Below are positions 18,390 through 35,064 of a stretch of DNA of 64,000 nucleotides, piece by piece. This stretch comes from Alphaproteobacteria bacterium (GTDB lineage Bacteria; Pseudomonadota; Alphaproteobacteria; RF32; CAG-239), in assembly GCA_017457005.1 (NCBI GenBank), contig JAFTII010000031.1:746-64745 (forward strand). The letters are read 5' to 3'. The translations under genes and the position numbers were made by a program. Position 1 is the first letter of the stretch. Each line of letters opens with the position of its first letter. Under the pieces are notes generated by a model. That model did no database searches and was not told where the DNA came from. It was given only the letters and a program-made list of their open reading frames with translations.

Positions 18390-18544
18390 CGCTGTTCTCC
18401 TGTAGTACAAGGCTCTATAAAATAGAGCATACGAATCCCTTTTGATTTATTATAACACATAAATTACTTATAAAGTGTTACAGTTTTTTGATTTTTTTGA
18501 AGGAATTTTCTAAAACTAAGGCAACTGAATTTATATTAGACTGC

Positions 18545-19306
18545 CTATTCTGCCGGTACTGCCGGTGTTTCTTGATCAACCGTAACACGCCTTGTTTCAC
18601 CCAGACCCGTTTCAAAAGTATCACCATAGAAAATTGTCGTTGTATCACCGGTAATATAAGTTACAATACCTCCGGCTGCCGCCAAAGCTGCCAACCCGAC
18701 AACAAGAGCTGCAAACCATTTCCAATTAATTTTGCCAAAGATAGCTCCAAAAGCCACACCAACAAGACCAAAACCGCCAACAATAAAGATAACAATCTTT
18801 AAATCTTTAAAAGTCTTAATTCCCTTATATAAAGCTAAGGTCAGAAGGGATGTTGTTGACTCTGCAAATGTTACAAAATTGGAACTGTCTGTATTCAGAG
18901 TATCTGTAATCATATTTTGGGTAAAGCCTTTGCAGCCGATAATCATATCAACAAGTTCTCCGGTACTGGCAATAACCACCAAAGAAATAACTATCGCTCC
19001 AAGCCACTTCCAGTTTAAGTTACCAAAGAATCCTCCGACAGCAACTCCGAGGATACCAAAGCCGGCAACAATATAGATTAAATCTCTAAGACCATTATAA
19101 ATTTTTATTCCGGTACCAACCAAACCCTCAAACAAGCCGCTTGAAGTGATACAACCGGTCATGGAAGTGTCTTGAGAGTTGCCTCCGGAATTTGTACCAC
19201 CGGATGCCGGTGGGGGAGTATCCTCAGCAAACACGGGGGCAACATAAGCACCAAAAGCAAAAGACAATGCGATAAGCATATATAGATATCTTAACCCTTT
19301 CATCAT
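18545..19306 (-). CDS. Tandem-duplicated VirB2/TrbC-like pilin (two pilin units in one polypeptide)
   Basis: Likely start MMKGLRY at 19306 after GGAGG. Signal peptide, then two repeats of the hydrophobic helix, K/N-x-NWKW(F/L) loop, hydrophobic helix pattern (GFGILGVAVGGFFGNLNWKWLGAIVISLVVIA and GGFGLVGVAFGAIFGKINWKWFAALVVGLAALA). Confidence 0.5.
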   Translation of the reverse strand: MMKGLRYLYMLIALSFAFGAYVAPVFAEDTPPPASGGTNSGGNSQDTSMTGCITSSGLFEGLVGTGIKIYNGLRDLIYIVAGFGILGVAVGGFFGNLNWKWLGAIVISLVVIASTGELVDMIIGCKGFTQNMITDTLNTDSSNFVTFAESTTSLLTLALYKGIKTFKDLKIVIFIVGGFGLVGVAFGAIFGKINWKWFAALVVGLAALAAAGGIVTYITGDTTTIFYGDTFETGLGETRRVTVDQETPAVPAE

Positions 19307-19434
19307 TGCCTCCGTATTATATGTTTGTGAAATTATGTTATTAAATTTCAACCAATTTTAATTGATTGAGGTTTAATAACACCAAATTAGAAAGTAATCC
19401 GGAGAGCCGGCAAGCTCTCCGGATCTTTATAATA

Positions 19435-19854
19435 CTATTCTCCTTCTCCGCCTTCAGTGTCTCCACCAGAATCAGCGGTAACGCCAATAGCGGCACCGGA
19501 ACTAGCACCAAAAGTATCGCCATAACGACCGGTTGTTGCATCACCGGTTGCGTAAGTTACGATAGCACCGGCAGCTGCCAAGATTGCCAAACCTACGGCA
19601 AGACCGGCAAACCATTTCCAGTTAATCTTACCAAAGATAGCTCCGAAAGCCACACCGACAAGACCAAAACCACCAACAATAAAGATAATGGTTCTTACGG
19701 CTCTAAAGGTATTAACACCCTTAGATGCAGCCAAAGACATTATTGAAGTATTTGAGTTGGCAGTGCCTTGAGCTAAAGCATCGCCGGACATTCCGAGCAG
19801 AGCAAAAACTGCTACCATAAAAAATGTCCAAAAATTGTTTTTAATAAATCGCAT
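19435..19854 (-). CDS. virB2: VirB2/TrbC-like T4SS pilin (single unit, 139 aa)
   Basis: Signal peptide ending ALAQG, then two Gly-rich hydrophobic helices separated by KINWKWF, resembling the ISWMFG loop of Agrobacterium VirB2. AGGAGAA Shine-Dalgarno. First gene of the minus-strand operon. Confidence 0.55.
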   Translation of the reverse strand: MRFIKNNFWTFFMVAVFALLGMSGDALAQGTANSNTSIMSLAASKGVNTFRAVRTIIFIVGGFGLVGVAFGAIFGKINWKWFAGLAVGLAILAAAGAIVTYATGDATTGRYGDTFGASSGAAIGVTADSGGDTEGGEGE

Positions 19855-20151
19855 AATCGTTCTCCTTTAAATTAATACAAAACTCTTTATACTCTTTTAG
19901 GATAAACCATTTCAATGGTAAAATCCAGTAAATTTGTTTATAAGCCAAAATAGTTAACATATTGTTTACGCTAACAAAAAATTACCGTAACAAAAAATTC
20001 ACACATCTTAAACTTTGGTTAACACGATTTGGCAGAAGTTTATCCGTAGCTTTTTTGCCACAAAAAAATCAACAAGGTTGTGCATATTTTTTGGGGACTC
20101 TTGCCAAGAGTCGCATTTTGATTTATCAAGTGTTTAGAGGGGTTTTGTTTT

Positions 20152-21690
20152 ATGCAAAAAACGGCTTTAAAAACTTTTGTTTATAGTTTTTCGGTGTCTT
20201 TGTTTGCGATTTTTGTTGCAAACGGAGCATATTGGCATGTTCGCCCCTCGGAAAGCAAGATCAAAATCCCTAATAAAAACATTACCTTATTTCTTAAATC
20301 TTCTCCTGCCGGCACTGCGGCTCCGGTCAAAAAAATTGCTCTTAATGTGTTACCGGAAATTGCCGTTTTGCCACAAGAAATGCCCGATGAAGAAATTATA
20401 ATGGCAGATACAGATTTGCCTTTAATTCCTTTTGAAGATAATATTTTGATACCGGAGGAAAATAATACCCCTCAAATATTACCTGAAAAGCCGAAAAAGA
20501 TAAAAACTGCGGCTTTAATACCGCCTCCTTTAGTCAAAAACAGCGAAGAAACCTCTCCACCGGCAATTTTTGCTCCGGAATCAAACGAAAAAATCGCCAT
20601 CCCCTTGGAAGCGCCAAAATCTACAATAAGCAAATTAAACATTGCAAAAAAAGAAAAGCCGGTAAAGGAACCTGCTCCTCAACCGTCAATTGCCGTTAAA
20701 ACTCCGGAACCTTTACTACCCTTAGAAAGAAACCCCAACCTGATGTATTTGGCTGACAGTACAGTCAAAATCGGAAATCCGGAAACATTAAGCCATGTAG
20801 CAACAACCGAAGTTAATATTCCGGTCAACAGTATCAGCGCAGAAACCGCAAACACCCCTAAAGAACCCGAAAAACAAAGAAACTGGCAACAGATGTCAGA
20901 AAAACAAAAAAGCTCCGATTCACCATGGTTGGTTGCTAAAGCAAGCGGTGCAGTGCAAAATCTGAAGCTTAAAGAGGAAAGTTTCCAAAAGCCCATTGAC
21001 GTTGCTCAAAATCAACCGGAGGGTATTAAAGTGGCTACTAACACTGTCCAAAACTTGTTAATCCCCATACCGGATGACATCATGGAAGAAGAAAACCTTG
21101 TTCCTAAGCTATCTATTGATGATGACAAAAAAAATACCGAAAAAAAAGAAAATGTTACGGCATTACCGGCAGAAGAATCGAAAAAGGAAGTTGCAACAAC
21201 CGAAAAGCCTAAAAAGGGGAATATTTTATCCTCTCTGTCTTCTATATTTGACAAAGGCAACAATAAAAATAAAGAAAAAGGCTCGGATAAAAAGCCCAAT
21301 ATCATAAATTCCATCAAGAAAAAGTTGTCAGAATCATCTGCCGGAAAAATAATGCCAAAAGAAATGCGGTTATCTTTCCAACCTAATCGTGCAGAAATAT
21401 CAGGACAAACCCTTCGTTGGGTACAGGCCTTTGCAACCAATGTGGCAAAAAGCTCTTCAACACAGTTGGAAATACGCATTGACGGAACAACAACCACAAA
21501 CTTGCAACAAAAGCGGCTAAACCTTCTCTATAATATATTGCGTAATAAAGGTGTTGAAGAACATAAAATAGACACAGTATTCACGCAAAGAGAAGCAAAT
21601 TCTTTTATTTTGAGATTAGCCCCCATAAAAAAAGAGGAAATCGTAAACGGATATAATAAAATCACAGCAACAAAGTACAAGCAATGGTAA
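20152..21690 (+). CDS. Pro/Lys-rich exported protein (512 aa), first gene of the pilus-side operon; unknown function
   Basis: N-terminal hydrophobic segment, long PEPL/PKKP low-complexity region, structured C-terminal ~130 aa. No family recognised. Confidence 0.45.
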   Translation: MQKTALKTFVYSFSVSLFAIFVANGAYWHVRPSESKIKIPNKNITLFLKSSPAGTAAPVKKIALNVLPEIAVLPQEMPDEEIIMADTDLPLIPFEDNILIPEENNTPQILPEKPKKIKTAALIPPPLVKNSEETSPPAIFAPESNEKIAIPLEAPKSTISKLNIAKKEKPVKEPAPQPSIAVKTPEPLLPLERNPNLMYLADSTVKIGNPETLSHVATTEVNIPVNSISAETANTPKEPEKQRNWQQMSEKQKSSDSPWLVAKASGAVQNLKLKEESFQKPIDVAQNQPEGIKVATNTVQNLLIPIPDDIMEEENLVPKLSIDDDKKNTEKKENVTALPAEESKKEVATTEKPKKGNILSSLSSIFDKGNNKNKEKGSDKKPNIINSIKKKLSESSAGKIMPKEMRLSFQPNRAEISGQTLRWVQAFATNVAKSSSTQLEIRIDGTTTTNLQQKRLNLLYNILRNKGVEEHKIDTVFTQREANSFILRLAPIKKEEIVNGYNKITATKYKQW

Positions 21691-21731
21691 TAAGTCTTTG
21701 GAGAAGCTTGATTATTTAAAATTCAGTATGT

Positions 21732-22460
21732 ATGATAGGAACAAAAATGATAAATTACAAACAAGGAACTGCCAAAATGAAAACTAAAATATTACAAAAC
21801 ATATCACTCTCAGCGCTTCTGCTCCTAGCCGGATGTGCATATAATGATATATTTGGCGCAAGCAATACTTATGTTGAGCAAGCTCCTGATGTGGCCATTG
21901 TTGTGCCGCCACAAACATCAGGACATACAAAATCGCCAATGTTGGCAGACAATAACCCTATTAACTACCGTCAGGTTGCAGCAGATTATAGAGAATTCGG
22001 CGAAAGAACTCCATCTGACCAAACCATTGTTACCAGCGGATTTGGAAGTAATTTATCAGCTTCTATCCCTCCAACAATTGAAGAAGAAGTAAGCGACTAC
22101 GAAAATGAAATTAATGCCGCTATCGCAGAAGCAGAAACGGAAGCAGAAGAAGCCTTGACCGCCGAAGCTAAACAATCTGCAACCGATGATCCGGTTGAAG
22201 ACTGGTTAGCCGAAGAAGGAACAACTTTGAAAGGGTTGTTAACAGATTGGAGCGAACGCGCCGGTTGGAGATTGATTTGGAATACAAATCGTAATTATAC
22301 ACTTTCTGCCGGAGCTATGTTTAGAGGCAGATTTGCAGATGTAAGCTCTGCATTAATAAGAACTTTTGCAAGAGCAAGGCCTGCTCCCATAGCAACATTC
22401 TATAAAGGTAATAGAGTTTTGGTTGTTGAAACCATGGAGGACGAGAATGCATACAATTAA
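21732..22460 (+). CDS. Lipoprotein with TcpQ/PilL-like C-terminal domain (secretin-associated pilotin-like protein of type IVb pili)
   Basis: Lipobox LLLLAGCA. C-terminus GTTLKGLLTDWSERAGWRLIWNTNRNYTLSAGAMFRGRFADVSSALIRTF resembles the TcpQ/PilL2 domain (GW.L.W....Y.L pattern). Directly precedes the secretin gene and overlaps it. Confidence 0.5.
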   Translation: MIGTKMINYKQGTAKMKTKILQNISLSALLLLAGCAYNDIFGASNTYVEQAPDVAIVVPPQTSGHTKSPMLADNNPINYRQVAADYREFGERTPSDQTIVTSGFGSNLSASIPPTIEEEVSDYENEINAAIAEAETEAEEALTAEAKQSATDDPVEDWLAEEGTTLKGLLTDWSERAGWRLIWNTNRNYTLSAGAMFRGRFADVSSALIRTFARARPAPIATFYKGNRVLVVETMEDENAYN

Positions 22461-24048
22461 TTGGAAAAAATTCAGTTTAGGATTATTAGCTGCAGTAATG
22501 GCGGCTTCCTGTTCTATTTCAACAAAAATGGATGCCACAATTGAACGTGAAGTTGAGGCAGCTTCAAAACTCAAAGAAACAGCTAAAGTTCCAACCGCTT
22601 TGGCCAACCAAGACCTTATAAAAGTAAAAGATGATATTTGGCTTGGCGATACCAGCGAGATAGAATATGAAGGAGAGCCTTTACCTGCTTATTTGGATGG
22701 CAAAAACGGCATCACTTTGGTTAGCAACCGACCGATTACTCTCTTTGAAATCGGAGATATGATTAATAAAACAACCTCCCTCGGTGTTCGTTATGCTCCG
22801 CAATTGGAATCTGACGTTAAAAGTAAAGGCGCTGCCAATAAGCCTACAGCAGAGGCCGTAAATTCTGATTGGGCCGAACCAGATAAAATGCTGGTTTCTT
22901 ATCAGGGACCTTTGAGCGGATTGTTAGATGAGATATCTTCTCGCTTCGGAATTTGGTGGAAATATGAAAATAAAGAAATTTATTTTTATAAGTTTATTAC
23001 CAAAACATTTGTAATTTACAGTTTGCCAACCAAACCGAATATGTCTGTTAATGTAGGCGGAAGCCAAAGCGGCGGTGGCGGCAGTTCTTCCGTTAACTTG
23101 AGTTCATCCGTAGAAGTGGAAATGTGGAGCAATATTGAAAAAAGCATAAACGCCATTATCGGAGAAGGATCTAAGTTAACAACATCTCCGGCGGACGGAA
23201 CCATAACTTTAACAGCAACTCCAAGCGATATTAAAAAGGTGGCAAAGTTTGTAAACGAACAAAATATTCGTTTATCAAGACAAGTTGCAATCAGCGTTAA
23301 AGTTTTGCAAGTATCCGTTACCGACACCAACAACTATGGTTTGGACTTAAAAGCAACATTTAATGACGGAGTTACGGCATTTAATGTGGCTGGTTCAACA
23401 AGTGTTGCGTCTTCAGGCGGATTAACCAACGGCTTGTCACTCGGCATCTTGAAAAAGAATTGGACTGCGGATGCAGCCATAAAAGCTCTTTCACAACGCA
23501 ATAGCACAGCCTTAGTTACCAGCGGTACGGTTACAACACTTAATAACAAACCGGCACCGATTCAAGTTACGCAAAAGCAAAATTATATTGCCGAAATGAC
23601 CAAAACAAATAGCGGTACAGACGGAAATAACTATGATATATCAGTTACTACAGAAGAAATAGAAACCGGATTTACGTTAGATGTATTGCCCCGCATTTTG
23701 GAACATGGTCGGATGTTAATTATGTTTAACATGACTTTGTCTGATTTGGTTGCTTTGGAAAAAGTTGAATTCGGCTCATCTGATGAAAACCAATATATTC
23801 AAAACCCAAAAGTGGAATCCAGAGCATTCTCACAAGAAGTTGCTTTGTTATCAGGAGAATCCTTAATTTTGACCGGATTTGAAAAAGTTGATAACTCTAC
23901 TTCTAAAGAAGGAACTGGCTCTGCGGATAATTCTTTGTTAGGCGGTTTTGCTAATGCAGAAAAAGATCGCAGTATCTTGGTTATTATCTTAACACCGGTG
24001 GTATTGGAATCGCCTTTGACACCTGAAACCAGAATGAATATGAACTAG
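22447..24048 (+). CDS. Lipoprotein secretin (type IVb pilus secretin, PilN/TcpC/BfpB-like)
   Basis: ATG at 22447 after GGAGG. Lipobox AASCS. C-terminal secretin domain ending RSILVIILTPVV (the canonical secretin C-terminal block); Gly/Ser-rich linker mid-protein. Confidence 0.75.
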   Translation: MHTINWKKFSLGLLAAVMAASCSISTKMDATIEREVEAASKLKETAKVPTALANQDLIKVKDDIWLGDTSEIEYEGEPLPAYLDGKNGITLVSNRPITLFEIGDMINKTTSLGVRYAPQLESDVKSKGAANKPTAEAVNSDWAEPDKMLVSYQGPLSGLLDEISSRFGIWWKYENKEIYFYKFITKTFVIYSLPTKPNMSVNVGGSQSGGGGSSSVNLSSSVEVEMWSNIEKSINAIIGEGSKLTTSPADGTITLTATPSDIKKVAKFVNEQNIRLSRQVAISVKVLQVSVTDTNNYGLDLKATFNDGVTAFNVAGSTSVASSGGLTNGLSLGILKKNWTADAAIKALSQRNSTALVTSGTVTTLNNKPAPIQVTQKQNYIAEMTKTNSGTDGNNYDISVTTEEIETGFTLDVLPRILEHGRMLIMFNMTLSDLVALEKVEFGSSDENQYIQNPKVESRAFSQEVALLSGESLILTGFEKVDNSTSKEGTGSADNSLLGGFANAEKDRSILVIILTPVVLESPLTPETRMNMN

Positions 24049-24067
24049 AAGCAAAAGGAGAACCCCT

Positions 24068-25348
24068 GTGCTTGAAGATGCCAAACTATTAGATGATGAT
24101 ATTGACGGCGCAACAGCTCAGCGCTCTTGGGGTACGTCAATTACAGTTGATGGTGTTCAATATGCCACCAGTCTGTTTTGGCAGCCGTTACAAAACGCAA
24201 GCGACCCGTTTCAGGAAGTGGAAGAAGCTTCTGCCGGTGTATTGGAAGGCGCAGACTTATTTTGTATTAAAGGCGGAAAAGCTCCTCAATTCGGTATATG
24301 TGTATCTCAGGAAGGGTATAAAAGCGGAGAAAATGTTGCCGCAGTCGCATTAGCAACCGCATTATCTAATGTAGGCTCATTTATCGCCGTATTTAAGACC
24401 AATGAAGGTTGGTGGTACACTTGTATTCGTAATGATATTATTCTTTCTGACGGTGATATGCTGTTCTTAACAGAAGAAGAAGCTAAAGAACAGTTTATGT
24501 CTATGTTGGCAGTTCCGGATTGGGGCAAAAAAATTGCACCCAAAGAATGGGGATTTGAAGACACTGAAGATGTTGATTTGGCCGAAATTTTAATTAGAGG
24601 TGCAAAATCAAGATTACAGAAGATTAAAGCGTTAAGAGGTACAAAGCTTTTATTAGTAGTGGCAATATCTGCCGTTGTCGGAATCTGGTTAATATCAAGC
24701 TTGGTTGATAAATTGTTTTTAACCCCAACCGTGAGACCTGTAGTGGTACCAATAAAACCTAAAGTGGCGCCTAAAGCAGCTCCGGTGGTTGAAGAACCAA
24801 AACCGTGGGAGAAAGTAGCTGACCCCAAAACAATTATGGAAAATTGCTATCAAGGAATAACTGATTTGAATCAGATTCTTCCGCCGGGTTGGAATATCGG
24901 AAATATTGCTTGCTCAGGGACAGCTGTGGCTACAAGTTGGGTTAGAAGTATCGGGCGAGTTTCTTGGGCGAAAAAAGCTCTTGATAAATCGGGACTAAAT
25001 TTTTCAGGATATACTTTTTCTTCCAATGGCGGAAATTTATCGGCCACATTACCGATATCTAAAGCTGAAGAAAAAATGTCTCCTCCTAAATATACTCTTG
25101 TAGATCTGCAAAATGAGCTTAACGACAAGTTTCAGGCAATAGGGGTTGCAATATCTTTATCTTCAGATACAGAAAAAACACCGGCCGGAAAAATGTACAG
25201 AAGACTGAATTTTTCTTTAAAGTCTGAATATAACCCACTAACTTGGATTGAAATGTTAACAAAATATTCAGGACTTCGGATTAAAATGATAACCTATTAT
25301 CCTAACGACAAAACTTGGCAATATGAGGGAGCTATCTATGTTTTGTAA
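24068..25348 (+). CDS. Bitopic inner-membrane pilus assembly protein (R64 PilO / BfpC-like architecture)
   Basis: 426 aa with a ~190-aa cytoplasmic domain, single TM (LLLVVAISAVVGIWLISSLV) and a periplasmic domain. Position matches pilO in R64/PAPI-1 pil operons, and the size is similar to the ~430 aa I recall for R64 PilO. Confidence 0.45.
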   Translation: MLEDAKLLDDDIDGATAQRSWGTSITVDGVQYATSLFWQPLQNASDPFQEVEEASAGVLEGADLFCIKGGKAPQFGICVSQEGYKSGENVAAVALATALSNVGSFIAVFKTNEGWWYTCIRNDIILSDGDMLFLTEEEAKEQFMSMLAVPDWGKKIAPKEWGFEDTEDVDLAEILIRGAKSRLQKIKALRGTKLLLVVAISAVVGIWLISSLVDKLFLTPTVRPVVVPIKPKVAPKAAPVVEEPKPWEKVADPKTIMENCYQGITDLNQILPPGWNIGNIACSGTAVATSWVRSIGRVSWAKKALDKSGLNFSGYTFSSNGGNLSATLPISKAEEKMSPPKYTLVDLQNELNDKFQAIGVAISLSSDTEKTPAGKMYRRLNFSLKSEYNPLTWIEMLTKYSGLRIKMITYYPNDKTWQYEGAIYVL

Positions 25349-26684
25349 AATTAAGAACTTTGTTACCGTATCAGCTTTAGCTTTAATAGTTTCTGCTACT
25401 AATTACGCAAATGCACAAGGATTGGTCACTCTTTCTGAAGAAGCTATGTTTGATGAAACTGAAGCTCCAAAAGAAAAAGAAACTCCTAAACCGGAGCTTA
25501 ACTCCGATGGTGGAGATGATGCACTAGGCAATATCGCTCCCAAAGCCGCCACTCCGGCTCCGATTGCAGAAAAAACAACACCGGAAGTTCCGGTTCAATC
25601 CCTCAAACAAGATACTAAAGAATCGACTAAATACCCGTCAGTTAACCCTGAAGCAATCCCTTCTTTTGAAGATATTGCAACAGAAGAAGAGAATCTTGTT
25701 GATAGTGAAGTTTTTCAAAAAATGTCTGATATTGAAAAACAAACAGCATTGTTAAATTTGGAATTGCGAAAAGAACGAGTAAGAAATGAAATTGAGGCTC
25801 TAAAAAATCAACGCCGACAAGCTGAACAGCAAGAAAAAGATGCCGAAGAAGAAAAAATTCGCAAACAAAAAGAATGGGAAAAAGAGCAAGAACGTAAAAT
25901 TTTGGAAGAACAACAGAAATTACGTGAATTAGATATCCAATTTGAAAAATATCGTCAGGAAAGACTGCTTAATTCCTATAAGAATGAAATGCTTAAAGCA
26001 AATCAGGAATGGATTGCGCATGAAAGCGGTTTATATAAGCAAATCAATGATTTGAAAGCTGAAAAACAGGCTTTGCTTAATGAAATGAAGAATAAATTGC
26101 AAAAAATAAAAAGCAACGCTTCTTCAATCCCTGCAAAAGCTAAAGAGTTGGTTGATGCATATAAAAAAGAACTGGAAAATAAAGATGTTCAAATATCTGT
26201 GTTGAGAGCTAGAAATGAAGCTCAAGAGAGAGAATTAGAAAAGAAGAATCCGTTTGCAGAAGGTGCATCCGAAGCAACCACAACTACCGGCTCACAAGCA
26301 ACTACTCCGGCAGAAGTAGAAGTTGAAGAATTAAAATTAATTAATTTGTATGCGGTAATGGAAATAAGAGGACAAAACGGAGAACTGATTGCCAAATTAA
26401 TTAATAAAGACGGAATGCCTTTTTATGTGAAAAAAGGTACAATGTTGCAGAGCGGGCATACTATCTCGGAAATTACATCTACATACGTAAAAGCCGAAAA
26501 AGATGGTACTGCTGACTATTTATACTTTGCAGCAGGTGGAATATTGCCTAAAGAGCAACCGTCAAATACTATTAAACAAAAGATATCCGAAGAGAACAAA
26601 GACGACAATTCTTCAGGAGGAACAACATCTTTTGTTGCCAGTACGGGGGTTCCCGGCATGGGTAAATCTATGATGGCCAGGTAA
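25323..26684 (+). CDS. Secreted protein with an acidic coiled coil and a PilP/GspC-HR-like C-terminal beta domain
   Basis: Signal peptide ending ANAQG. Lys/Glu-rich coiled coil. C-terminus LINLYAVMEIRGQNGELIAKLINKDGMPFYVKKGTMLQSGHTISEI resembles PilP secretin-binding domains. Confidence 0.45.
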   Translation: MRELSMFCKIKNFVTVSALALIVSATNYANAQGLVTLSEEAMFDETEAPKEKETPKPELNSDGGDDALGNIAPKAATPAPIAEKTTPEVPVQSLKQDTKESTKYPSVNPEAIPSFEDIATEEENLVDSEVFQKMSDIEKQTALLNLELRKERVRNEIEALKNQRRQAEQQEKDAEEEKIRKQKEWEKEQERKILEEQQKLRELDIQFEKYRQERLLNSYKNEMLKANQEWIAHESGLYKQINDLKAEKQALLNEMKNKLQKIKSNASSIPAKAKELVDAYKKELENKDVQISVLRARNEAQERELEKKNPFAEGASEATTTTGSQATTPAEVEVEELKLINLYAVMEIRGQNGELIAKLINKDGMPFYVKKGTMLQSGHTISEITSTYVKAEKDGTADYLYFAAGGILPKEQPSNTIKQKISEENKDDNSSGGTTSFVASTGVPGMGKSMMAR

Positions 26685-26691
26685 ATAAACA

Positions 26692-28383
26692 ATGGCAATA
26701 GATTCTGAAGAAGAAAATAATGATGTTTTAGAAAATCCGGCATCAGAAGATATTTCTGATGCCGCCGGCAATTCTTCAGAAGAAAAAAAATCCAACCCCG
26801 AACAAGAACATAAAGTATCTATTGTTGATAATTATTTTTCTAACGGAAATAAATTATTAACCTTGCCAGGTTCGTCTTTAGTTATAAATGATGATACACG
26901 TCGTTTATTGGCCTTGTTTTCGGATGGTCGTTTTTTAGTATCAGAAAATCATAAATTTGACGGACGCGTTCTCAGTTTTGAAGTTCTTGCTCGTAAAAAG
27001 AAACTGGCAATACTAAAGCCAACCTATGTTTCTCAAAATGAAATAAATGCAATTTACAGTATTGGTGAGCGAGCTCAAGCTTCCGTAGATGCCAGTGAAG
27101 ATACAGAGCTTGACCAACTGCAAATGCAAAAGGACTTTGTTAACGTTATTGCCAGGGCTGCAAGTCAAAAAGTTTCTGACGTACACGTTATTGTTGCAGA
27201 CAGCACGCAAATTATGTTCCGTGTAAACGGCATGATGACAACCGAAATGGAATATAATAAAGACTGGGGAGAAGCATTTGTTCGTGCAGCGTTTGCTTCT
27301 GCAGATGTGTCTGACTCAAACTATGCACAGAATGAATTTCAGGCTGCTCAAAAACTGGGAGCAACCCCCTTGCGTGGATCTAAAGGTAAATTAATGTTGC
27401 CTCACAATGTGTTGGCTATTCGTTTACAATTTAACCCTATTGCTTTCGGGTCTCAATATTTGGTAATGCGTTTATTATACGCAGATGATAATCCGGACGG
27501 TTCCGGTGACCTTGCCAGTTTAGGTTTTGGGGAATACGAAGAAAATTTATTTTATCGTTTGCGAGCAGTACCTGTCGGGTTAAGTGTAATTGCCGGCCCT
27601 ACCGGTTCAGGAAAATCAACAACATTGCAACGTAATATGATTAAGTTGTTGCAAGAAAAAAACTATGAAATCAACCTTATTACCGTGGAAGATCCTCCTG
27701 AATATCCTATCCCCGGAGCAAGACAAATGCCGGTGACAAATGCAAACACCGAAGAAGAAAAAGATGAACAATTTACAAAAGCTCTATCTGCAGCGTTACG
27801 TTCTGACCCTGATGTTATGATGGTTGGTGAGGTACGCTCTTTATCGGCTGCGCAGTTGACATTCAAAGGCGCATTATCAGGACATGGTGTTTGGACAACT
27901 TTGCATGCCAACTCTGCGCCTGCAATATTAATGCGTTTACGCGATATGGGAGTAGAAACATTTAAATTGCTTGACCCGGAATTGGTTAAAGGACTTATTT
28001 CTCAGCGTTTGTTCAGAAAATTGTGTCCACATTGCAGAATATCAGTAAAAGAACGATTAAACGAGCTTTCCGTGCAACGTCTAAAAACCGCTTTAGGTGA
28101 TTTTGGAATAGAAAATACCTATGTCAGAGGGCCGGGGTGTAAATTTTGCAACAATACCGGTATTAAAGGCCGAATGAGTGTTCCGGAAATTATTTTACCG
28201 GATGCAATTTTCTTGGAATTAATGATTAAGGGAGAAACTAGAAAAGCTATTGACTATTGGACCAGTGATTTAAATGGCAGAACCCTTAAAGAAGCGGCTA
28301 TAGAACGAATGCTAAAAGGTTTGATAGACTTAGATGAAGTAGAGCGTTGGTGCGGATTATTAGATCAACGTCCGGTTTATTAG
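26692..28383 (+). CDS. GspE/PilB-family pilus assembly ATPase (R64 PilQ / TcpT / BfpD-like)
   Basis: Walker A AGPTGSGKSTTL, Walker B/Asp box DPDVMMVGEVRS, His box TTLHANSA, and a C-terminal tetracysteine CPHC...CKFC zinc motif typical of extension ATPases. Confidence 0.85.
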   Translation: MAIDSEEENNDVLENPASEDISDAAGNSSEEKKSNPEQEHKVSIVDNYFSNGNKLLTLPGSSLVINDDTRRLLALFSDGRFLVSENHKFDGRVLSFEVLARKKKLAILKPTYVSQNEINAIYSIGERAQASVDASEDTELDQLQMQKDFVNVIARAASQKVSDVHVIVADSTQIMFRVNGMMTTEMEYNKDWGEAFVRAAFASADVSDSNYAQNEFQAAQKLGATPLRGSKGKLMLPHNVLAIRLQFNPIAFGSQYLVMRLLYADDNPDGSGDLASLGFGEYEENLFYRLRAVPVGLSVIAGPTGSGKSTTLQRNMIKLLQEKNYEINLITVEDPPEYPIPGARQMPVTNANTEEEKDEQFTKALSAALRSDPDVMMVGEVRSLSAAQLTFKGALSGHGVWTTLHANSAPAILMRLRDMGVETFKLLDPELVKGLISQRLFRKLCPHCRISVKERLNELSVQRLKTALGDFGIENTYVRGPGCKFCNNTGIKGRMSVPEIILPDAIFLELMIKGETRKAIDYWTSDLNGRTLKEAAIERMLKGLIDLDEVERWCGLLDQRPVY

Positions 28384-28393
28384 GAGATAAAAA

Positions 28394-29527
28394 ATGGCTG
28401 ATGAAAAAATAAAAAAGAAAGCAAAAGCTAAATCTATGCAACGAGCAATGATGAAGCTTAATGCTATTGAAGAATATTATGCCAAAATGATTATTGTTTT
28501 CTCCAATAAAGTACGCTTAAAATTATACAGAAAGATAGCATCTTTAATGAAGAATCGTTTTTCATTGATGGATGCTTTGGATATGTTATATGATGGTGCC
28601 AGTAACGGCGGAAAGAATCCGGGTGAGCCATTGGCAATTGCTATTGCAGCTTGGGGTAAAGCTCTTAATAACGGTAAAACTTTTTCTGATGCCTTAAAAG
28701 GTTGGGCGCCAAACCGTGAACGTCTAATGCTTTCTGTCGGCGATGTATCTGACTTAGAGAGCGCCTTACTGAATCTTATTAAAGTGACAGAAGGTTCTAC
28801 AAAAATGGTACGTCCGATTATCGGTGCAATTGCCTACCCGAGCTTTTTGACAATGATGTCGGTACTTATTATTTATGCAATCGGTGTTTATATGGTGCCT
28901 CCGATGATTGATGCAGCCCCCAACGTTGTTTGGCGCGGAATGGCCAAAGACTTGGTGGATTTATCTTATTGGATTAAAAACAACTGGTTTATTGCGTTTG
29001 CGACACTGCCGATTATTATGGCGGTTATCTATTTTACTATTGGAATTTGGACAGGACGTGTCAGAGCTGCTTTTGATAATATTCCACCTTGGTCTTTATA
29101 TAAAGTATTTACCGGTATCAGTTGGCTATTGGCTTTATCCGCTTTGGTTAAGGGCGGAACCCCTGTTTCTACGGCAATGCGTGCATTACGTAGAGATTCC
29201 AGCCGATACTTGAAAGAACGTATTGATAAGACTATGGTTTTTATTAACAATGGTGATAACTTAGGACAAGCTTTAGCAAAAACCAAACTTAATTTTCCTG
29301 ATACGGAAATTATAAGTGACTTAAAAATTTATTCAGAACTTGATAACTTTGAAGAGGCCTTGGATAACTTAGCAAACGAATGGTTAGAAGAATCTGTTTA
29401 TTTGATTGAGGAAAAAGCCGGAATTTTAAATATGCTGGCATTGTTGTCTATCGGTGCAGTAATTGCATGGGCCGTTATGGGAACATTTGAAATGCAAGAT
29501 CAGATTACCAGTGGAATGGGAGGATAA
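28394..29527 (+). CDS. GspF/PilC-family inner-membrane platform protein
   Basis: 377 aa with three hydrophobic segments in the spacing typical of T2SSF-domain platform proteins. Follows the ATPase gene. Confidence 0.7.
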   Translation: MADEKIKKKAKAKSMQRAMMKLNAIEEYYAKMIIVFSNKVRLKLYRKIASLMKNRFSLMDALDMLYDGASNGGKNPGEPLAIAIAAWGKALNNGKTFSDALKGWAPNRERLMLSVGDVSDLESALLNLIKVTEGSTKMVRPIIGAIAYPSFLTMMSVLIIYAIGVYMVPPMIDAAPNVVWRGMAKDLVDLSYWIKNNWFIAFATLPIIMAVIYFTIGIWTGRVRAAFDNIPPWSLYKVFTGISWLLALSALVKGGTPVSTAMRALRRDSSRYLKERIDKTMVFINNGDNLGQALAKTKLNFPDTEIISDLKIYSELDNFEEALDNLANEWLEESVYLIEEKAGILNMLALLSIGAVIAWAVMGTFEMQDQITSGMGG

Positions 29528-29529
29528 AA

Positions 29530-30144
29530 ATGAACAAAATAAAAGCTTTTATAAGAGGATTTATAAAGTTATCAACCATATTAATAAAAAAAATATGGGA
29601 AATATTCAGACGTTATCCTAAAAAAATACAAATTGCAATTTTAGCTGGATTAGCTCTTGTAATATTAGGGATTTCTTGGTTTTCTGCTCCATTGCCGATA
29701 GGAAAAGCAGTTAAAGAAATGGAGGCTTTAGCCGGTAATATCAGGCGATTATACCAAAACAGACCGGATTATTGGGGGCTAAATACGCAGTTGGTACTTG
29801 ACAAAAAAATATACCCTAATAAAATGGGAGAAAACAATAAGCTGACCAGTCTTTTGGGTAATAATGTCTTGGTTGGAGACGGACATTTAGGTAAAGTTCT
29901 CATGCCCGGTTCTCGTAACTTCGATATCACATATAGTGAACTAACCAGAAAACAATGTATTCAACTGGCTACTCACGATTTTGACAGCTCTTTTTGGTTA
30001 GTGGTAATGGGTGTTACCATTGTAAACAATGAAGAACAACAGCTGTTTTCTTGGGAAGACAAAGAATATAAGCTACCGATTAGCATGGCTCACGCTAAAA
30101 AGTTGTGCAAAGACGGAAGCGCTATTGTTTGGCATAATGACTAA
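29530..30144 (+). CDS. Bitopic protein with basic N-terminus, single TM and periplasmic domain carrying a C-terminal Cys pair (pilin-like accessory protein?)
   Basis: 204 aa. Lacks the G / x4-E prepilin signature, so it is not called a pilin. Cys residues in TRKQCIQLA and KKLCKDGS suggest a disulfide-bonded domain. Confidence 0.35.
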   Translation: MNKIKAFIRGFIKLSTILIKKIWEIFRRYPKKIQIAILAGLALVILGISWFSAPLPIGKAVKEMEALAGNIRRLYQNRPDYWGLNTQLVLDKKIYPNKMGENNKLTSLLGNNVLVGDGHLGKVLMPGSRNFDITYSELTRKQCIQLATHDFDSSFWLVVMGVTIVNNEEQQLFSWEDKEYKLPISMAHAKKLCKDGSAIVWHND

Positions 30145-30262
30145 GGGATTATAACTTTGGCAATAAAAAAACTAATAAATTATACTTTCGGTCAAGTATT
30201 TTATGACTAAGGATAAGATTGTTCATAATTTATTAATCTGTTATAGTTAAACTATACACAAA

Positions 30263-30928
30263 ATGGATTTTAGGAGAGATACTATGTATAATATGTATAA
30301 AAATGAGCAATCAGGACGTTCCATGGTGGAAATGCTTGGCGTGCTTGCAATTATCGGAGTGCTTTCGATAGGTGGTATCTCCGGTTATTCAAAAGCGATG
30401 GCAAAATATCGCGTTAATAAAACATTAGATCAGATATCTATGTTGGTTATGAATATCCGTTCTTTGTTCTCTGCCAGTGTAGATTATACAGGTTTATCTG
30501 ATCAGACTGCTATTCAGATGGGTATTATTCCGAGAGATATGTTACCACCAAACACAACCGAAGCAACAGCAACAAAAATCATGAATGCTTACCAAGGCGG
30601 TGTATTCTTATCTACAGGTAACAGTGGCGGAACCGGGCGTTCATTTATTGTACAATATTCCGGTCTTACTCGTGAAGCTTGCGTAGCAATTGCAACCGCA
30701 GATTGGGGTTCTCAAGCTGGTTCAGGTTTGGTCGGCATATCTATTAAAGCCGGTACAGGTACCGATAAAACAGCAAAGGTTGCTATGCCTACAATTACAG
30801 TTGGTACAGACCAAACTGCAAACGGAGTTTTCGGAATGGATCAAATGCCGATTACTTTAGCAGAAGCTGCTACTCACTGTGCTGCAACTACCGATGTAGG
30901 TAATGCTGTACAATGGGAATATTACTAA
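30263..30928 (+). CDS. Type IVb prepilin (major pilin candidate)
   Basis: 18-aa basic leader MDFRRDTMYNMYKNEQSG, then RSMVEMLGVLAIIGVLSIGGI. Gly at -1, Glu at +5, a hydrophobic alpha1 helix, and a C-terminal Cys pair (REACVAIA ... THCAATT) forming a D-region. Confidence 0.7.
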   Translation: MDFRRDTMYNMYKNEQSGRSMVEMLGVLAIIGVLSIGGISGYSKAMAKYRVNKTLDQISMLVMNIRSLFSASVDYTGLSDQTAIQMGIIPRDMLPPNTTEATATKIMNAYQGGVFLSTGNSGGTGRSFIVQYSGLTREACVAIATADWGSQAGSGLVGISIKAGTGTDKTAKVAMPTITVGTDQTANGVFGMDQMPITLAEAATHCAATTDVGNAVQWEYY

Positions 30929-30953
30929 GCTAGTAATCATAAAAAGTTTGAAA

Positions 30954-30978
30954 GGAGCTTGTATAAGCTCCTTTTTTT
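30954..30978 (+). terminator. Rho-independent terminator after the pilin gene
   Basis: GGAGCTT-GTATA-AGCTCC hairpin followed by TTTTTTT. Confidence 0.5.
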
Positions 30979-31000
30979 ATAAACAAATCAAGACAATAAT

Positions 31001-31052: not shown

Positions 31053-32015
31053 TTAAAATTCTTGTTTTAATTGACGTTCAAACATACTGCGAATGGTGCT
31101 TTTTATATCAGCATTTTCATAAATAACCCGATACAAAGCTTGACAAATAGGCATATCAATATTTCGCTCATCAGCAATATGTTTTACAGCCTTTAAGGTA
31201 GCAACACCTTCTGCAAGTTTACCAAAATTTTCTCCGCGAGCAAAATTTTCGCCATAAGTACGATTATGACTATGTTTAGAGAATAGCGTAGCCTCATAAT
31301 CACCAAGATGTGATAATCCGTATGCGGTTCTGGAATCACCACCGAGAGCGGCAATAAAGCGTCCAACTTCAACCGGAGCCCTCGCCATCAAGGCGCCTTT
31401 TAATCCGTACCACTCCAGACCGTCTAAAATTCCGGCAGCAATACCGATAACGTTTTTAAGCGCTGCGCCGACTTGATTACCGATAAGATCTGCCCCATAA
31501 TAAAAACGAATTAAATCACTGGAAAGAGCTTTAATTAAAAGGTCTTTTGTAGCTTCCTCATCGCTATCTATTACCGCACAAGAGGGAACTTTTTTCATAT
31601 AGTCCTGAACGTGTCCAGGGCCGCCTAAAGTACCGATATGAATATCTTGTTTAATTTCTTGGCGCATAATATCAAGCATTGTAGAAGCATTGGGATATTC
31701 AAGCCCTTTCATTGCCAAAAGGAATGTCTTGCCGTTTAAGTCATAAGCAGACAATTCTTTACACAAACCACGAAAATACTGACACCCGATGGAAATTATA
31801 ATCATGTCATTATTCAGCACCGCTGCCAAATTATCATGTAAATACATATTGTCAGATAAACTTAAATATGGATTTTTGCGAGTATCACGCAGTTCTATAA
31901 AATTAGGAGATGTCGGTATATCATACATATCAACATCAAAACCACAATAGTTCGCAGCGTACCAGCCTAAAAAAGTACCCCAGCGCCCACATCCGATAAG
32001 AGAAATATTACTCAT
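31053..32015 (-). CDS. gpsA: NAD(P)H-dependent glycerol-3-phosphate dehydrogenase
   Basis: N-terminal Rossmann motif ISLIGCGRWGT; the ~320-aa length and overall sequence pattern are typical of GpsA. Confidence 0.75.
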   Translation of the reverse strand: MSNISLIGCGRWGTFLGWYAANYCGFDVDMYDIPTSPNFIELRDTRKNPYLSLSDNMYLHDNLAAVLNNDMIIISIGCQYFRGLCKELSAYDLNGKTFLLAMKGLEYPNASTMLDIMRQEIKQDIHIGTLGGPGHVQDYMKKVPSCAVIDSDEEATKDLLIKALSSDLIRFYYGADLIGNQVGAALKNVIGIAAGILDGLEWYGLKGALMARAPVEVGRFIAALGGDSRTAYGLSHLGDYEATLFSKHSHNRTYGENFARGENFGKLAEGVATLKAVKHIADERNIDMPICQALYRVIYENADIKSTIRSMFERQLKQEF

Positions 32016-32113
32016 AATAAGTTTCCTTTTGTTATAATTAATATATATTTAGTAGCCCATATAAAGAACTTTTGCAACAAAGATATTGCAAAAGCACACG
32101 GATATTATTAAAA

Positions 32114-32554
32114 CTAAAGAGAACTTTTTTTACTTCTTTGACGAGTAACTATTGCGCCAATATGGTCAAATTCCGTAAAAGAATGATATGCATAATCCAA
32201 GCTTTTTTTATCACAATCGTAAAACACTTGATTAGCTAAAGATTGAATAGCACTGTCTATACGCTTAAAGGCATTATTATAGTCGGAATTGTAATTATTT
32301 TTTTGTTTTTTTTGAACGATGAAATGATAAGCGGCGATTACTTTTGCGGTTTCTTCCGCTGAATTTGCATAACCTTTTTCTTCAAAGTCACGCATGATTC
32401 GTGCTGTTGTCTGATAAAAGCACTTATTAGTTAAAATACTCTTTTGCTTTTTATTATTACTATCAATTATCATCGCCTGATACCTATAGTTTAAGAGGTT
32501 ATGTAACACAAAATATAATAATTGGCAAGAGTTTTTACTAGGTTTAGGGTACAT
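32114..32554 (-). CDS. Hypothetical protein (146 aa)
   Basis: ORF only. Contains a T7-G-T8 homopolymer tract (32288-32304) in the coding region. Confidence 0.3.
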   Translation of the reverse strand: MYPKPSKNSCQLLYFVLHNLLNYRYQAMIIDSNNKKQKSILTNKCFYQTTARIMRDFEEKGYANSAEETAKVIAAYHFIVQKKQKNNYNSDYNNAFKRIDSAIQSLANQVFYDCDKKSLDYAYHSFTEFDHIGAIVTRQRSKKSSL

Positions 32555-32654
32555 TATTTAGTTTAAGAATCTGTTAATTTCAGTAAAAATTCTAAAGACA
32601 TAAAAAATTTGTTGCAAAATACAATCTTATCGGTTAGTTTAAGCTTTGTTTTGC

Positions 32655-32745
32655 GGATAGATGGCCGAGTGGTCGAAGGCGCACGATTGGAAATCGTGTG
32701 TACCTCCAAAGGGTACCGTGGGTTCGAATCCCACTCTATCCGCCA
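32655..32745 (+). tRNA. tRNA-Ser (anticodon GGA)
   Basis: Acceptor stem GGATAGA/TCTATCC, anticodon loop TTGGAAA, long variable arm, T-loop GGTTCGAATCC, 3' CCA encoded. Confidence 0.85.
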
Positions 32746-33030
32746 TTTACAAACCCACCTTTTGGTGGGTTTTATTAATAAAAATATCTCTTACACAACA
32801 AGAAGAATTGAAAAATGATATAAAAAATAAGGTGCGTGTATGTGAAATTCTTAAAAAATATGGAATCACTAAACCGACTTATTACAGATATAAAGAGAAT
32901 TTTGGGTTGTAATTATAAAGGGCGGATTTATTCCGCCTTTTGTTTCATAGTTTGTAATAGAACATATTTTATTGATTTTTAATTAGTCATATCTTAATCT
33001 ACATATAAATTTATTAAAAAGGAGTGTAAT

Positions 33031-33402
33031 ATGAGCAAATTTTTATGTTTTTGTCTTGGTGTAATATGCGGAATGATTGCGTTCCCCTTAATAGTGGGCA
33101 ATGTTAGTGATTATGACAATCCTTACGGAATAAAAGGATTAAGAATGTTAGAAAAAAAAGGTAGTTGTATAACTAATAAAAATCTTGAAATATTTCAAAA
33201 TCACGCAGAAGGTATAGCATTAGCACATCCAGTAAATGATTTTGAAACACTCGTATTACTTATTGATGAAAGCGGTAGATTGTTTTATGATGGAGAAACG
33301 GTTAAAAATCCATCAAAAAAATGTGCCAAACAAATTGGTGTCTACCAATATGAAACTAATGCAGGACCAATTAAAACTGTCCCTGCTGTAATAATTGAAT
33401 AA
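33031..33402 (+). CDS. Hypothetical membrane-anchored/exported protein (123 aa)
   Basis: N-terminal hydrophobic segment; no family recognised. Confidence 0.35.
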   Translation: MSKFLCFCLGVICGMIAFPLIVGNVSDYDNPYGIKGLRMLEKKGSCITNKNLEIFQNHAEGIALAHPVNDFETLVLLIDESGRLFYDGETVKNPSKKCAKQIGVYQYETNAGPIKTVPAVIIE

Positions 33403-33570
33403 TATGAGGGTATAATATGAAAAAAGTTTTTTTATTGTTTGCAATAGTTTTATTATCTGGATGCAATAGTTTTAGATGTGAATTTACTCATCCAAATAAT
33501 ATGACACCCGCAATGTTAGAATATTGTAAAGCAGCAGCAAGTTCGTCTGATGTATATGTAGCACGTTAAT

Positions 33571-34296
33571 ATGTCTGAATTGCTTGGTGTTATACTAATT
33601 TTCTTTTTAATTGGTTATGTCTTATATAAGAAAGCCAAAAGGGATGTTATACGAGAGCAATTACAACGACAAGAGAACATTGATTTAATTAGCAGTGTAA
33701 CACCTATATTTAGAGGAACATCTACTGAAAGATTCTTAATTTTAACTTTATTAAAACACGGTATAAATTCAAGAACTATATTTCACGACCTATACATATT
33801 TAAACCAGATGGGAAAACATCTCAAATTGACCTTGTTGTCGCCACAAGTGTTGGTATAATTGTTTTTGAAGTAAAAGATTATAGTGGTTGGATATATGGA
33901 AAAGGGAATCAACAAAAATGGACACAGGTATTATCTTATGGTAGAGAAAAACACCGCTTTTATAATCCTATATTACAAAATAAGTCTCATATATCTCAAT
34001 TACAAAGAATTTTGAAAGAAAAAGTCCCTTTTTATTCTGTTATTGTCTTTTATGGTAATTGTAGATTAGAAGATATTAGTTTTATCCCTCAAAACACATT
34101 TATTACTAAATCTTATAGAGTTCTTGATGTTGTAGAAAGTATATTACAAAATAATCCTATTGCTAATTATAAAGATAAACATAATGTTGTAAATCTTTTG
34201 AAAAAAGCTGTTACGAATGGGAGTAAAGATAATATTGAAGAAAAACATATTGATAATATCAAAGATATGTTAGGAGATGATAGAATTTTCAAATAA
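33571..34296 (+). CDS. NERD (nuclease-related domain) protein with N-terminal TM helix
   Basis: Central block DLVVATSVGIIVFEVKDYSGWIYGKGNQQKWTQ...RFYNPILQNKSHISQL resembles NERD-domain proteins. Confidence 0.45.
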   Translation: MSELLGVILIFFLIGYVLYKKAKRDVIREQLQRQENIDLISSVTPIFRGTSTERFLILTLLKHGINSRTIFHDLYIFKPDGKTSQIDLVVATSVGIIVFEVKDYSGWIYGKGNQQKWTQVLSYGREKHRFYNPILQNKSHISQLQRILKEKVPFYSVIVFYGNCRLEDISFIPQNTFITKSYRVLDVVESILQNNPIANYKDKHNVVNLLKKAVTNGSKDNIEEKHIDNIKDMLGDDRIFK

Positions 34297-34725
34297 ATTC
34301 CTACATCTCAACCACCGAATATTGCCCATTACAATACTTCACAATAGCAAAGTTTCTTCTATTAAGGGCCTGGAATACTACAATCCAAGCCCAACCATTA
34401 TTAAAAACAATTTGTCCGTCTTTCATTATGTAGGTGTATTTCTTATTAAATGTCATCAATTTATGATATGCGGTGGTTAATTCCATTTATTGACCTTTAC
34501 AAATATGATAATATTCTTTTGGTAATAATGCGTTGCCCTTTATCTATTAAATAATAAAGATTGCGATTTATTGCTTCTTTGTTATCAAATTCCTCATAAA
34601 GAAAATATAACTCATTTAGATTATGTAATAGATTGTTTATGGCATTGATTGCAGGTTTTCGTGATTCACATATTATTATTGAACTTTTTCTAATAGTTGT
34701 TCGTTTTTAAATACAGGTGTAAAAA

Positions 34726-35061: not shown

Positions 35062-35064
35062 AAT

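Follow-up and report, generated by a model that had tools for sequence, protein, structure and literature searches.

Several studied type IVb pilus (T4bP) systems bear on the locus described here. Bfp of enteropathogenic Escherichia coli (EPEC) is encoded on the virulence plasmid pMAR2 in the order bfpA-G-B-C-U-D-E-F-P-H-I-J-K-L, the pilus of PAPI-1 and pKLC102 in the order pilL2-N2-O2-P2-Q2-R2-S2-T2-V2-M2, and the thin pilus of R64 (IncI1), a system without a retraction ATPase, by pilI-V. A further variant, Tfp7 of Burkholderia pseudomallei, is chromosomal and has a TcpQ-type protein, no peptidase of its own and a pilT2 gene outside the operon (PMC3984277). Our subject is a locus in a 64,000-nucleotide (nt) stretch of DNA from an alphaproteobacterial metagenome assembly (contig JAFTII010000031.1; hereafter the window, itself part of a 112-kb metagenome scaffold), in which nine plus-strand open reading frames (ORF1 to ORF9) fill positions 20152 to 30928. 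They overlap or lie a few bases apart, the sole gap of more than 100 nt (118-139 nt) being placed ahead of the pilin gene. In our judgement, the locus probably encodes the envelope-spanning machine of a retractile T4bP of the Bfp/PAPI-1 class, vertically inherited in the chromosome of uncultured gut Alphaproteobacteria. An earlier note on this DNA had also taken the array for a T4bP locus, and the component families, the grouping of the ATPase and the prepilin domains all agree with it.

The assembly proteins proper are encoded by ORF2 to ORF7, which were compared with the reference operons of IncI (R64-type), EPEC bfp, pKLC102/PAPI-1 and a Bosea megaplasmid locus. ORF2 (21732-22460; 242 aa, or 237 aa from the called start at 21747) is a TcpQ/BfpG/PilL-type lipoprotein, the partner of the secretin, with an LLAGC lipobox, a TcpQ domain (PF10671, E 1.7e-15) and matches to Bosea TcpQ (5e-20), BfpG (7e-18), PilL2 (5e-8) and IncI PilL (2e-6). 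ORF3 (22423-24048; 541 aa, 533 aa as called) is a lipoprotein secretin of the PilN/BfpB family (PF00263; lipobox AASC), matching BfpB (6e-56) and IncI PilN (8e-55) over its full length; its best model, TIGR02520 (PilN, type IVB), gives 270.7 bits, 17 bits below the cutoff of 287.65. The next protein, ORF4 (24068-25348; 426 aa), combines a cytoplasmic actin-like domain with a periplasmic one, the transmembrane (TM) segment lying near residue 195. Its family profile matched the N-domain of BfpC (3vhj, E 1.8e-4) and PilO2Bp (4byz) in the PDB, its periplasmic C-domain aligned end to end with IncI PilO (hhalign 94%, E 8.6e-8), and blastp retrieved Bosea PilO2 (8e-29) and BfpC (6e-9 over 418 aa). 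The PilO2/BfpC family of bitopic proteins, as redefined in PMC3984277, thus takes in ORF4.

ORF5 (25323-26684; 453 aa) carries a signal peptide, a variable Pro-rich and then a coiled-coil region of together about 300 residues, and a C-terminal beta domain. It occupies the PilP/BfpU position, the equivalence to BfpU being positional, and hhalign compared it to IncI PilP at E 3.5e-4 with a probability of 37%. The most conserved component, ORF6 (26692-28383; 563 aa), is an extension ATPase of the BfpD/PilQ2 type with a T2SSE domain, a Walker A motif and a CPHC...CKFC tetracysteine, just as the GspE-type ATPase with tetracysteine had been described in the earlier note. Against the PDB it scored 324 bits with BfpD, the runners-up being PilF (166) and GspE (163). 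In a neighbour-joining (NJ) tree of limited sampling, from which TcpT, PilB and TadA were left out, the ORF6 lineage grouped with BfpD, Bosea and Methylorubrum (87%), and this group joined R64, PAPI-1 and Glomeribacter (87%) with GspE outside; among the ATPases included, the enzyme thus falls with T4bP and apart from the type II secretion ATPase, as the earlier note had expected. The polytopic platform protein of the BfpE/PilR type, ORF7 (28394-29527; 377 aa), completes this core with a T2SSF domain (PF00482, E 1e-22).

Two further genes encode pilin-like proteins. ORF9 (30284-30928; 214 aa from the ATG at 30284, 221 aa from 30263) is the major type IVb prepilin, with PilS (E 2.5e-14) and Bundlin (E 1e-11) domains and a full-length match to BfpA (9e-10). 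The start at 30284 is the most likely one, judged by the AGGAGA Shine-Dalgarno sequence before it and by the 214-aa product also called on the source contig. From this start the leader reads MYNMYKNEQSG and the mature protein would begin with RSMVEMLGVLAIIGVLS. Across 27 species, neither the class III signal, G11, R12 and E16 (G|RSMVE), nor the alpha1N helix varies, so that the prepilin leader proposed earlier appears cleavable when compared with its homologs. The first 40 or so residues are almost invariant, the C-terminal half is hypervariable with insertions and deletions, and 14 loci hold two or three pilin genes in tandem; read from the alignments, this combination is the signature of what would be an exposed major type IV pilin. 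The tandem paralogs (L013:13413-15476, L017:13559-15492 and others, where L numbers denote related loci) have identical N-termini and divergent globular domains. The pilin gene is absent from the locus in L026, L029, L034 and L086.

ORF8 (29530-30144; 204 aa) had been noted as a bitopic protein with a pair of cysteines. It does have one TM segment and two invariant Cys, and it is, further, a membrane-anchored paralog of the pilin, with an alpha1C helix and a globular domain of the Bundlin/PilS fold. Comparison of the ORF8 and pilin families by hhalign aligned them from alpha1C to the C-terminus (99.7%, E 8.9e-26), and the ORF8 profile matched bundlin (1zwt) at 1.8e-8. At the N-terminus ORF8 has an ordinary TM segment, and none of the 29 species compared shows the G(-1)/E(+5) prepilin motif there; no counterpart was recognised in the four reference operons. 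Between the two genes, a consensus scan found a promoter-like site (30157-30186, plus strand; TTGGCA, 18 nt, TATACT) that might serve the pilin gene. Transcription of the latter would end at the terminator already proposed in the earlier note, a likely intrinsic one consisting of a hairpin (AAAGGAGCTT-GTAT-AAGCTCCTTT) and a T-run at 30951-30979 on the plus strand; a program scan places the same hairpin on the minus strand.

At the other end of the array, ORF1 (20152-21690; 512 aa) gave no Pfam or NCBIfam match and belongs to a family of 962 proteins without a Pfam domain, whose few named members are hypothetical proteins of alphaproteobacterial metagenome-assembled genomes (MAGs). It had been described as a Pro/Lys-rich exported protein. 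The composition stands, in the form of a disordered Pro/Lys/Glu-rich linker, but the protein is not simply exported; it is bitopic, with a TM helix at residues 3-30 and a C-terminal domain at 404-491 that has the fold of OmpA, Pal and MotB. In the AlphaFold2 model, some 370 disordered residues connect the TM helix with a confidently predicted beta-alpha-beta-alpha-beta-beta domain, whose per-residue confidence (pLDDT) is about 74-88, and all 49 Foldseek matches of this domain in the PDB at E<1e-3 were OmpA/Pal/MotB-like domains or chains containing one. The fold search was the sole approach that identified the domain, in which the canonical loop spacing is shortened. From the model we infer that ORF1 is a putative MotB-like peptidoglycan anchor of the machine. 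A kinship with PilL, PilK or PilM was considered and rejected, there being no blastp signal, no hhalign match to PilL and no PDB profile match.

ORF1 is preceded by a conserved promoter/leader element of 50 nt (20101-20151, plus strand), TTGCCAAGAGTCGCATTTTGATTTATC(A/T)AG..TTTAGAGGGGTTT..ATG, which is nearly invariant in 29 aligned species with unalignable flanks. It contains TTGCCA, a 17-nt spacer, TATCAA, and AGAGGGG 8-10 nt before the ORF1 ATG, which would correspond to a -35 box, spacer, imperfect -10 box and Shine-Dalgarno sequence and suggest a promoter or operator role. Within 20040-20151 it is itself preceded by a half-palindrome, ATCCACAAA/TTTGTG, that looks like an operator for a dimeric regulator. 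The element is single-copy in each of 40 loci and occurs once in the window, against a chance expectation of 0, which rules it out as a regulon motif common to the pilin, the small ATPase described below or the type IV secretion system (T4SS) next to the locus. Since it is kept in loci where that T4SS is absent upstream (e.g. L016, L019, L023, L024 and L083), it belongs to the pilus operon.

The boundary that the earlier note drew after the pilin gene is functionally wrong, as a tenth component lies well beyond it. Between rpsA and xpt, at 56877-57842 on the plus strand, a small ATPase of the BfpF/PilT2 type (321 aa; Walker A, no tetracysteine) is encoded, which is 32% identical to BfpF over 334 aa (1e-43), 34% to the second, in-operon ATPase of Bosea (2e-53) and 28% to PilT2 of pKLC102 (7e-34), and which forms a clade with these three in an NJ tree (98%). 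The homologous operons of Bosea, bfp and pKLC102 contain the small ATPase internally, and in 39 of 63 related loci an ortholog follows the platform gene at a distance of no more than 6 kb, directly behind the pilin genes. In the window, it stands 26 kb off in a block with xpt, tlpA, a vWA gene, a PP2C gene, a kinase gene and an NMO-family gene; the closest relatives, L010 and L025, have the small-ATPase block between the pilin gene and gpsA. The intervening region of about 26 kb (31053-56876) is made up of housekeeping genes, which indicates a chromosomal rearrangement rather than an inserted mobile element. An ATPase of the BfpF/PilT2 type would act as retraction motor; retraction is therefore predicted for this machine, in contrast to the R64 thin pilus.

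Some neighbours of this ATPase may be mentioned in their own right. Three genes at 59022-61894 travel with it, whose products have 227 aa (a vWA protein), 245 aa (a PP2C phosphatase) and 486 aa (a Ser/Thr kinase), and in about 30 related loci the block of these genes and the small ATPase follows the pilin genes. The set resembles the TerY-type vWA/PP2C/kinase triad. In the window, xpt and a gene for a TlpA-like thiol-disulfide oxidoreductase separate the small ATPase from the three; the part of the block at 57839-58800 is on the minus strand. At the other end of the rearranged region, 32000-35200 has the lowest G+C of the window (0.30) and holds a tRNA-Ser gene, small ORFs without family matches, a gene for a NERD nuclease-domain protein and a tRNA-Arg gene; this patch may be a small island adjoining the rearrangement point.

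Conservation across related genomes is a further line of evidence. Relatives of the ORF6 ATPase at 62-91% identity were found in 77 species-level genomes, in nearly all of which the order ORF1 to ORF9 is kept with ORF1 at its head; because the same genes recur in the same order across so many species, chance is excluded as an explanation of the nine-gene locus. Identity declines from the ATPase (62-91%) through the platform protein, secretin, PilO2-like, TcpQ-like and PilP-like proteins, ORF1 and ORF8 to the pilin, and such graded divergence across the 77 species is the pattern that would be expected of vertical descent. Apart from the genes treated here, the window holds housekeeping functions (gpsA, three tRNAs, rnpA, yidC, engB, a DnaJ-type gene, cmk and rpsA), and the locus is therefore chromosomal. 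The relatives are labelled uncultured Alphaproteobacteria, in keeping with the host proposed earlier, and come from human, Hadza, mouse, rabbit, chicken, deer and rumen samples; named ones include 'Proteobacteria bacterium CAG:495' and Candidatus Scatocola faecigallinarum. Their place in GTDB is presumably the order RF32, family CAG-239. A single ATPase cluster is present on at least 1000 contigs, and the longest contigs suggest a small genome for the lineage. Full-text literature searches returned no paper on pili or secretion systems of the RF32/CAG-239/CAG-495 lineage, while automated annotation already names several of the parts, the Joint Genome Institute label for the ATPase being bfpD. 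The kind of system is thus already known, and the variant and its host lineage are without description in the literature searched. Two of the loci, L043 and L047, carry MAG titles of Lactobacillaceae and Lachnospiraceae together with a fully syntenic alphaproteobacterial pilus locus, which suggests binning or labelling errors in these public records.

Divergently adjoining the pilus locus, as the earlier note had recognised, the minus strand from 798 to 19854 encodes a VirB-like T4SS with three VirB2-domain proteins (139, 268 and 762 aa), VirB3, VirB4, two VirB8 and VirB9, identified by Pfam and NCBIfam matches that all remain well under the curated cutoffs. VirB8 is thus present twice and the VirB2 domain in three genes, with single copies of VirB4 and VirB9. 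Four proteins of the operon have no family match, and its products include large secreted or coiled-coil proteins. Beyond the start of the window, the operon continues (as seen in L005:13839-20236) with a 619-aa beta-flower protein, a 1493-aa VirB10 with nine beta-flower repeats, and VirB11; the best model of this VirB10 is ComB10 (NF038092; 113.9 bits, cutoff 300), the VirB10 score being nearly equal. The designation 'Rvh-type', which the earlier note had attached to the system, is not supported: a crude hydropathy scan predicts one TM segment for the 927-aa protein and two for the 1293-aa protein, neither of which has a VirB6/TrbL Pfam match, and no polytopic VirB6 candidate was found in the operon. 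VirD4 was likewise found neither in the operon nor in the 9 kb beyond. At 16122-19854 (minus strand), a VirB2 domain lies within the 762-aa coiled-coil protein, and the 268-aa protein has two VirB2-like hydrophobic pairs.

The T4SS stands divergently upstream of the pilus operon in 51 of the 62 loci with enough flank (82%) and downstream of it in two (L018 and L049). No published precedent for a T4bP adjoining a VirB-type T4SS was found. Plasmid pYR4 of Y. ruckeri, considered as an example of a T4bP beside a non-I-type T4SS, was set aside on account of its tra genes, which are R64/Dot-Icm-like and thus of the I-type.

Taken together, these assignments suggest how a retractile pilus machine of this composition would work. 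A prepilin peptidase from another part of the genome would cleave the ORF9 prepilin behind Gly11, and polymerisation of the pilin would be powered by the BfpD-type ATPase ORF6, for which the platform protein ORF7 and the PilO2/BfpC-type ORF4 would provide the docking site. The PilP-like ORF5 would bridge the inner-membrane complex and the lipoprotein secretin ORF3, the latter being assembled with the TcpQ/BfpG-like lipoprotein ORF2. The OmpA-fold domain of ORF1 could fasten the machine to the cell wall, and the detached ATPase at 56877-57842 would retract the fibre. Adhesion and cell-cell contact are the most likely role of such a pilus and, given the frequent adjacency, the pilus may bring a target within reach of the T4SS.

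Several observations weigh against this interpretation. Known T4bP need minor pilins or a tip protein to start assembly, yet no PilV/TcpB-type tip protein and no minor pilins with a class III signal were found, which is the most serious gap in the model. Homologs of PilV, PilM and BfpI/J/K/L were absent from the window, from 9 kb upstream and 8 kb downstream of it, and from up to 10 kb around the locus in the 77 genomes, and among the window ORFs the class III signal occurs in the pilin only, once an N-terminal chance match of VirB4 is set aside. An A24 prepilin peptidase was detected neither in the window nor in about 81 kb of the source contig nor within 10 kb on either side of the locus in the 77 genomes. 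Both phmmer searches with IncI PilU and BfpP and a two-sequence hidden Markov model (ORFs of at least 70 aa, window and L001-L089) were negative, and neither Pfam scans of the main window ORFs of at least 100 aa nor the contig neighbours up to record position 102 kb showed one. The earlier note had proposed to look for this enzyme elsewhere on the contig, and over the roughly 81 kb covered it was not found. A T4bP can, however, depend on a peptidase encoded elsewhere, as do the PAPI-1 pilus, which has none and borrows PilD, and Tfp7, which lacks one alongside its detached pilT2 (PMC3984277). The PilP-like character of ORF5 is a tentative assignment, its C-terminus matching TIGR03021 (pilP_fam) at E 4e-6 with 27.9 bits, under the curated cutoff of 34.65. 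The leader of ORF9 has 11 aa from the Shine-Dalgarno-supported start and 18 aa from the upstream ATG, with Arg, a non-Phe residue, at +1. Typical T4b leaders have about 13-30 aa and are followed by a non-Phe residue, and both Arg at +1 and a leader of 11 aa are atypical among T4b pilins. Finally, the upstream T4SS is absent in 11 of the 62 loci, and the two machines are therefore not obligatorily linked.

One protein outside both operons may be recorded here. An SLT-domain transglycosylase of 247 aa encoded at 39658-40401 has weak similarity to BfpH (E 0.0067) and TrbN (E 3.4e-5), and a homolog lies about 5 kb beyond the pilus locus in L023. It could possibly be a cell-wall remodelling partner of either machine.

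Within the reading of the locus as a retractile T4bP, the relation to the T4SS can be seen in different ways. The pilus could serve adhesion and aggregation independently of the T4SS, much as Bfp does in the formation and dispersal of EPEC microcolonies, the adjacency being a historical accident. Bfp is indeed the closest studied system, down to the retraction ATPase; the pilus operon keeps its own promoter element where the upstream T4SS is missing, and no regulatory motif in common with other genes was found. However, adjacency in 82% of loci across a divergence as deep as 62% ATPase identity is above what would be expected of unrelated neighbours, and we regard full independence as a real possibility, if short of probable. 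A bolder proposal, which we hold to be rather unlikely, unites the pilus with the atypical VirB-like T4SS in a single, co-inherited module for cell contact in this prevalent gut lineage, uncultured as it is, and sees ORF8 as a basal or priming subunit of a new kind that takes the place of the minor pilins; 'atypical' refers here to the VirB2 domains in the 268- and 762-aa proteins, the 1493-aa beta-flower VirB10 and an operon without VirB6 and VirD4. Such a pilus would grip a target (host epithelium, a protist or another bacterium) and pull the bacterium on, whereupon the T4SS would deliver cargo. If true, an attached, epibiotic or predatory lifestyle would follow for bacteria that are now treated as ordinary commensals.

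The earlier note had also considered a conjugation machine. On such a view, an R64/PAPI-1-style pilus would stabilise mating pairs for DNA transfer by the T4SS, and the region would be an integrated conjugative element or its remnant. The order of the genes equals pilL-N-O-P-Q-R-S(-T2) of R64 and pKLC102, 51 of 62 loci have the T4SS next to the pilus genes, and the G+C content over 14-30 kb is slightly above that further downstream. Nevertheless, the window, the 9 kb upstream and the related loci yielded no relaxase, VirD4/TraG, integrase, PilV adhesin or shufflon. The flanks consist of core housekeeping genes, divergence is graded over 77 species as would be expected of vertical inheritance, and the components are nearer to Bfp than to conjugative systems. 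A conjugative role is thus distinctly unlikely. Even less favoured is a T4bP-derived device for the secretion of a soluble colonisation factor, rather than a fibre made in the first place for adhesion. Precedents are the export of TcpF by Tcp and of CofJ by Cof, and the uncleavable pilin paralog ORF8 together with the lack of recognisable minor pilins hints at an unusual fibre. The operon, however, contains no candidate gene for a secreted substrate, an exposed fibre is in keeping with the hypervariable surface of the pilin and with the tandem pilin paralogs of relatives, and a retraction ATPase is present; we consider this explanation very improbable. A competence pilus for DNA uptake, suggested by the retractile look of the machine and by ComB10 as the best, below-cutoff model of the neighbouring VirB10, is in our view extremely improbable, since ComB10 and VirB10 score nearly equally, Pfam scans of the window found no ComEA, ComEC or DprA, and we know of no T4bP that acts in competence.

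The retractile T4bP reading is of interest for the biology of its hosts. Alphaproteobacteria of the CAG:495 and Candidatus Scatocola type are frequent inhabitants of human, rodent, bird and ruminant guts, and the conservation of a retractile pilus and of a T4SS next to it suggests an ecology that depends on physical contact with other cells. The locus is, moreover, a natural experiment, in which a T4bP without recognisable minor pilins or a peptidase of its own has gained a MotB-like ORF1 and a non-processable pilin paralog.

Comparison with the reference operons places the locus among the known T4bP. For the assignable proteins, similarity falls from Bosea over Bfp and pKLC102 to IncI, with bit scores of 334, 321, 275 and 177 for the ATPase and 240, 199, 147 and 107 for the platform protein; the secretin is the exception, IncI PilN scoring 186 bits and PilN2 160. 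The loci of Bosea sp. RAC05 pBSY19_1 and Methylorubrum extorquens AM1 were the closest in the plasmid collection (ATPase identity 38-39%, 334-350 bits), and no experimental study of either was found in the literature. The Bosea locus likewise has a second, small ATPase (34% identity). Unlike the locus described here, it includes PilV but no homologs of ORF1 and ORF8, and both the Bosea and the Methylorubrum loci are plasmid-borne.

R64 is the most distant system compared (PilQ 177 bits, PilR 107 bits). Its pilL-N-O-P-Q-R-S genes are collinear with the present ones, and for each ORF the best IncI Pil match is its positional counterpart, save for ORF1, which has none, and ORF5, whose match to IncI PilP (E 0.26) ranked behind a chance-level match to PilV. 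In contrast, PilM, PilT (a transglycosylase), PilU (the peptidase) and PilV with its shufflon were not detected here, and the R64 pilus is linked to an I-type conjugation system, whereas the neighbour of this locus is of the VirB type. Tfp7, which we liken to the locus by its description, belongs to the R64 variant and has PilV2 and PilM2.

The resemblance to PAPI-1/pKLC102 lies in the same order, with the pilin and then the small ATPase after the platform gene. This order with the trailing small ATPase is found in 39 of 63 relatives, and in the window the ATPase has moved 26 kb away. Unlike the locus described here, the PAPI-1 system is borne on an integrative and conjugative element with a G-type T4SS, serves conjugation and includes PilV2 and PilM2, neither of which was found here. 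With Bfp, the locus has in common the collinear G-B-C-(U)-D-E core and a homolog of the retraction ATPase BfpF, and Bfp provides the best studied match for the counterparts of BfpG, BfpB, BfpC, BfpD (321 bits), BfpE, BfpA and BfpF. It differs from Bfp in that bfpA comes first in the bfp operon, homologs of BfpP, BfpI/J/K and BfpL were not found, the sole BfpH-like match is the weak one of the SLT-domain protein, and ORF1 and ORF8 are additional, as is the greater length, about three times, of the protein in the place of BfpU/PilP; it is, furthermore, chromosomal in a commensal lineage, whereas Bfp resides on a virulence plasmid. The description of the locus as R64/PAPI-1-style in the earlier note therefore stands for the gene order, which is collinear with the pilL-N-O-P-Q-R-S genes of the IncI and pKLC102 operons, but not for the nearest studied sequence relative, Bfp being closer than R64 for each component. 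The locus is, in sum, a Bfp/PAPI-1 hybrid, in which Bfp-like sequences stand in PAPI-1 order and link the two variants, and to which the lineage has contributed parts of its own: ORF1 with its OmpA-fold domain, a PilP with a 300-residue extension and a pilin paralog without the cleavage motif.

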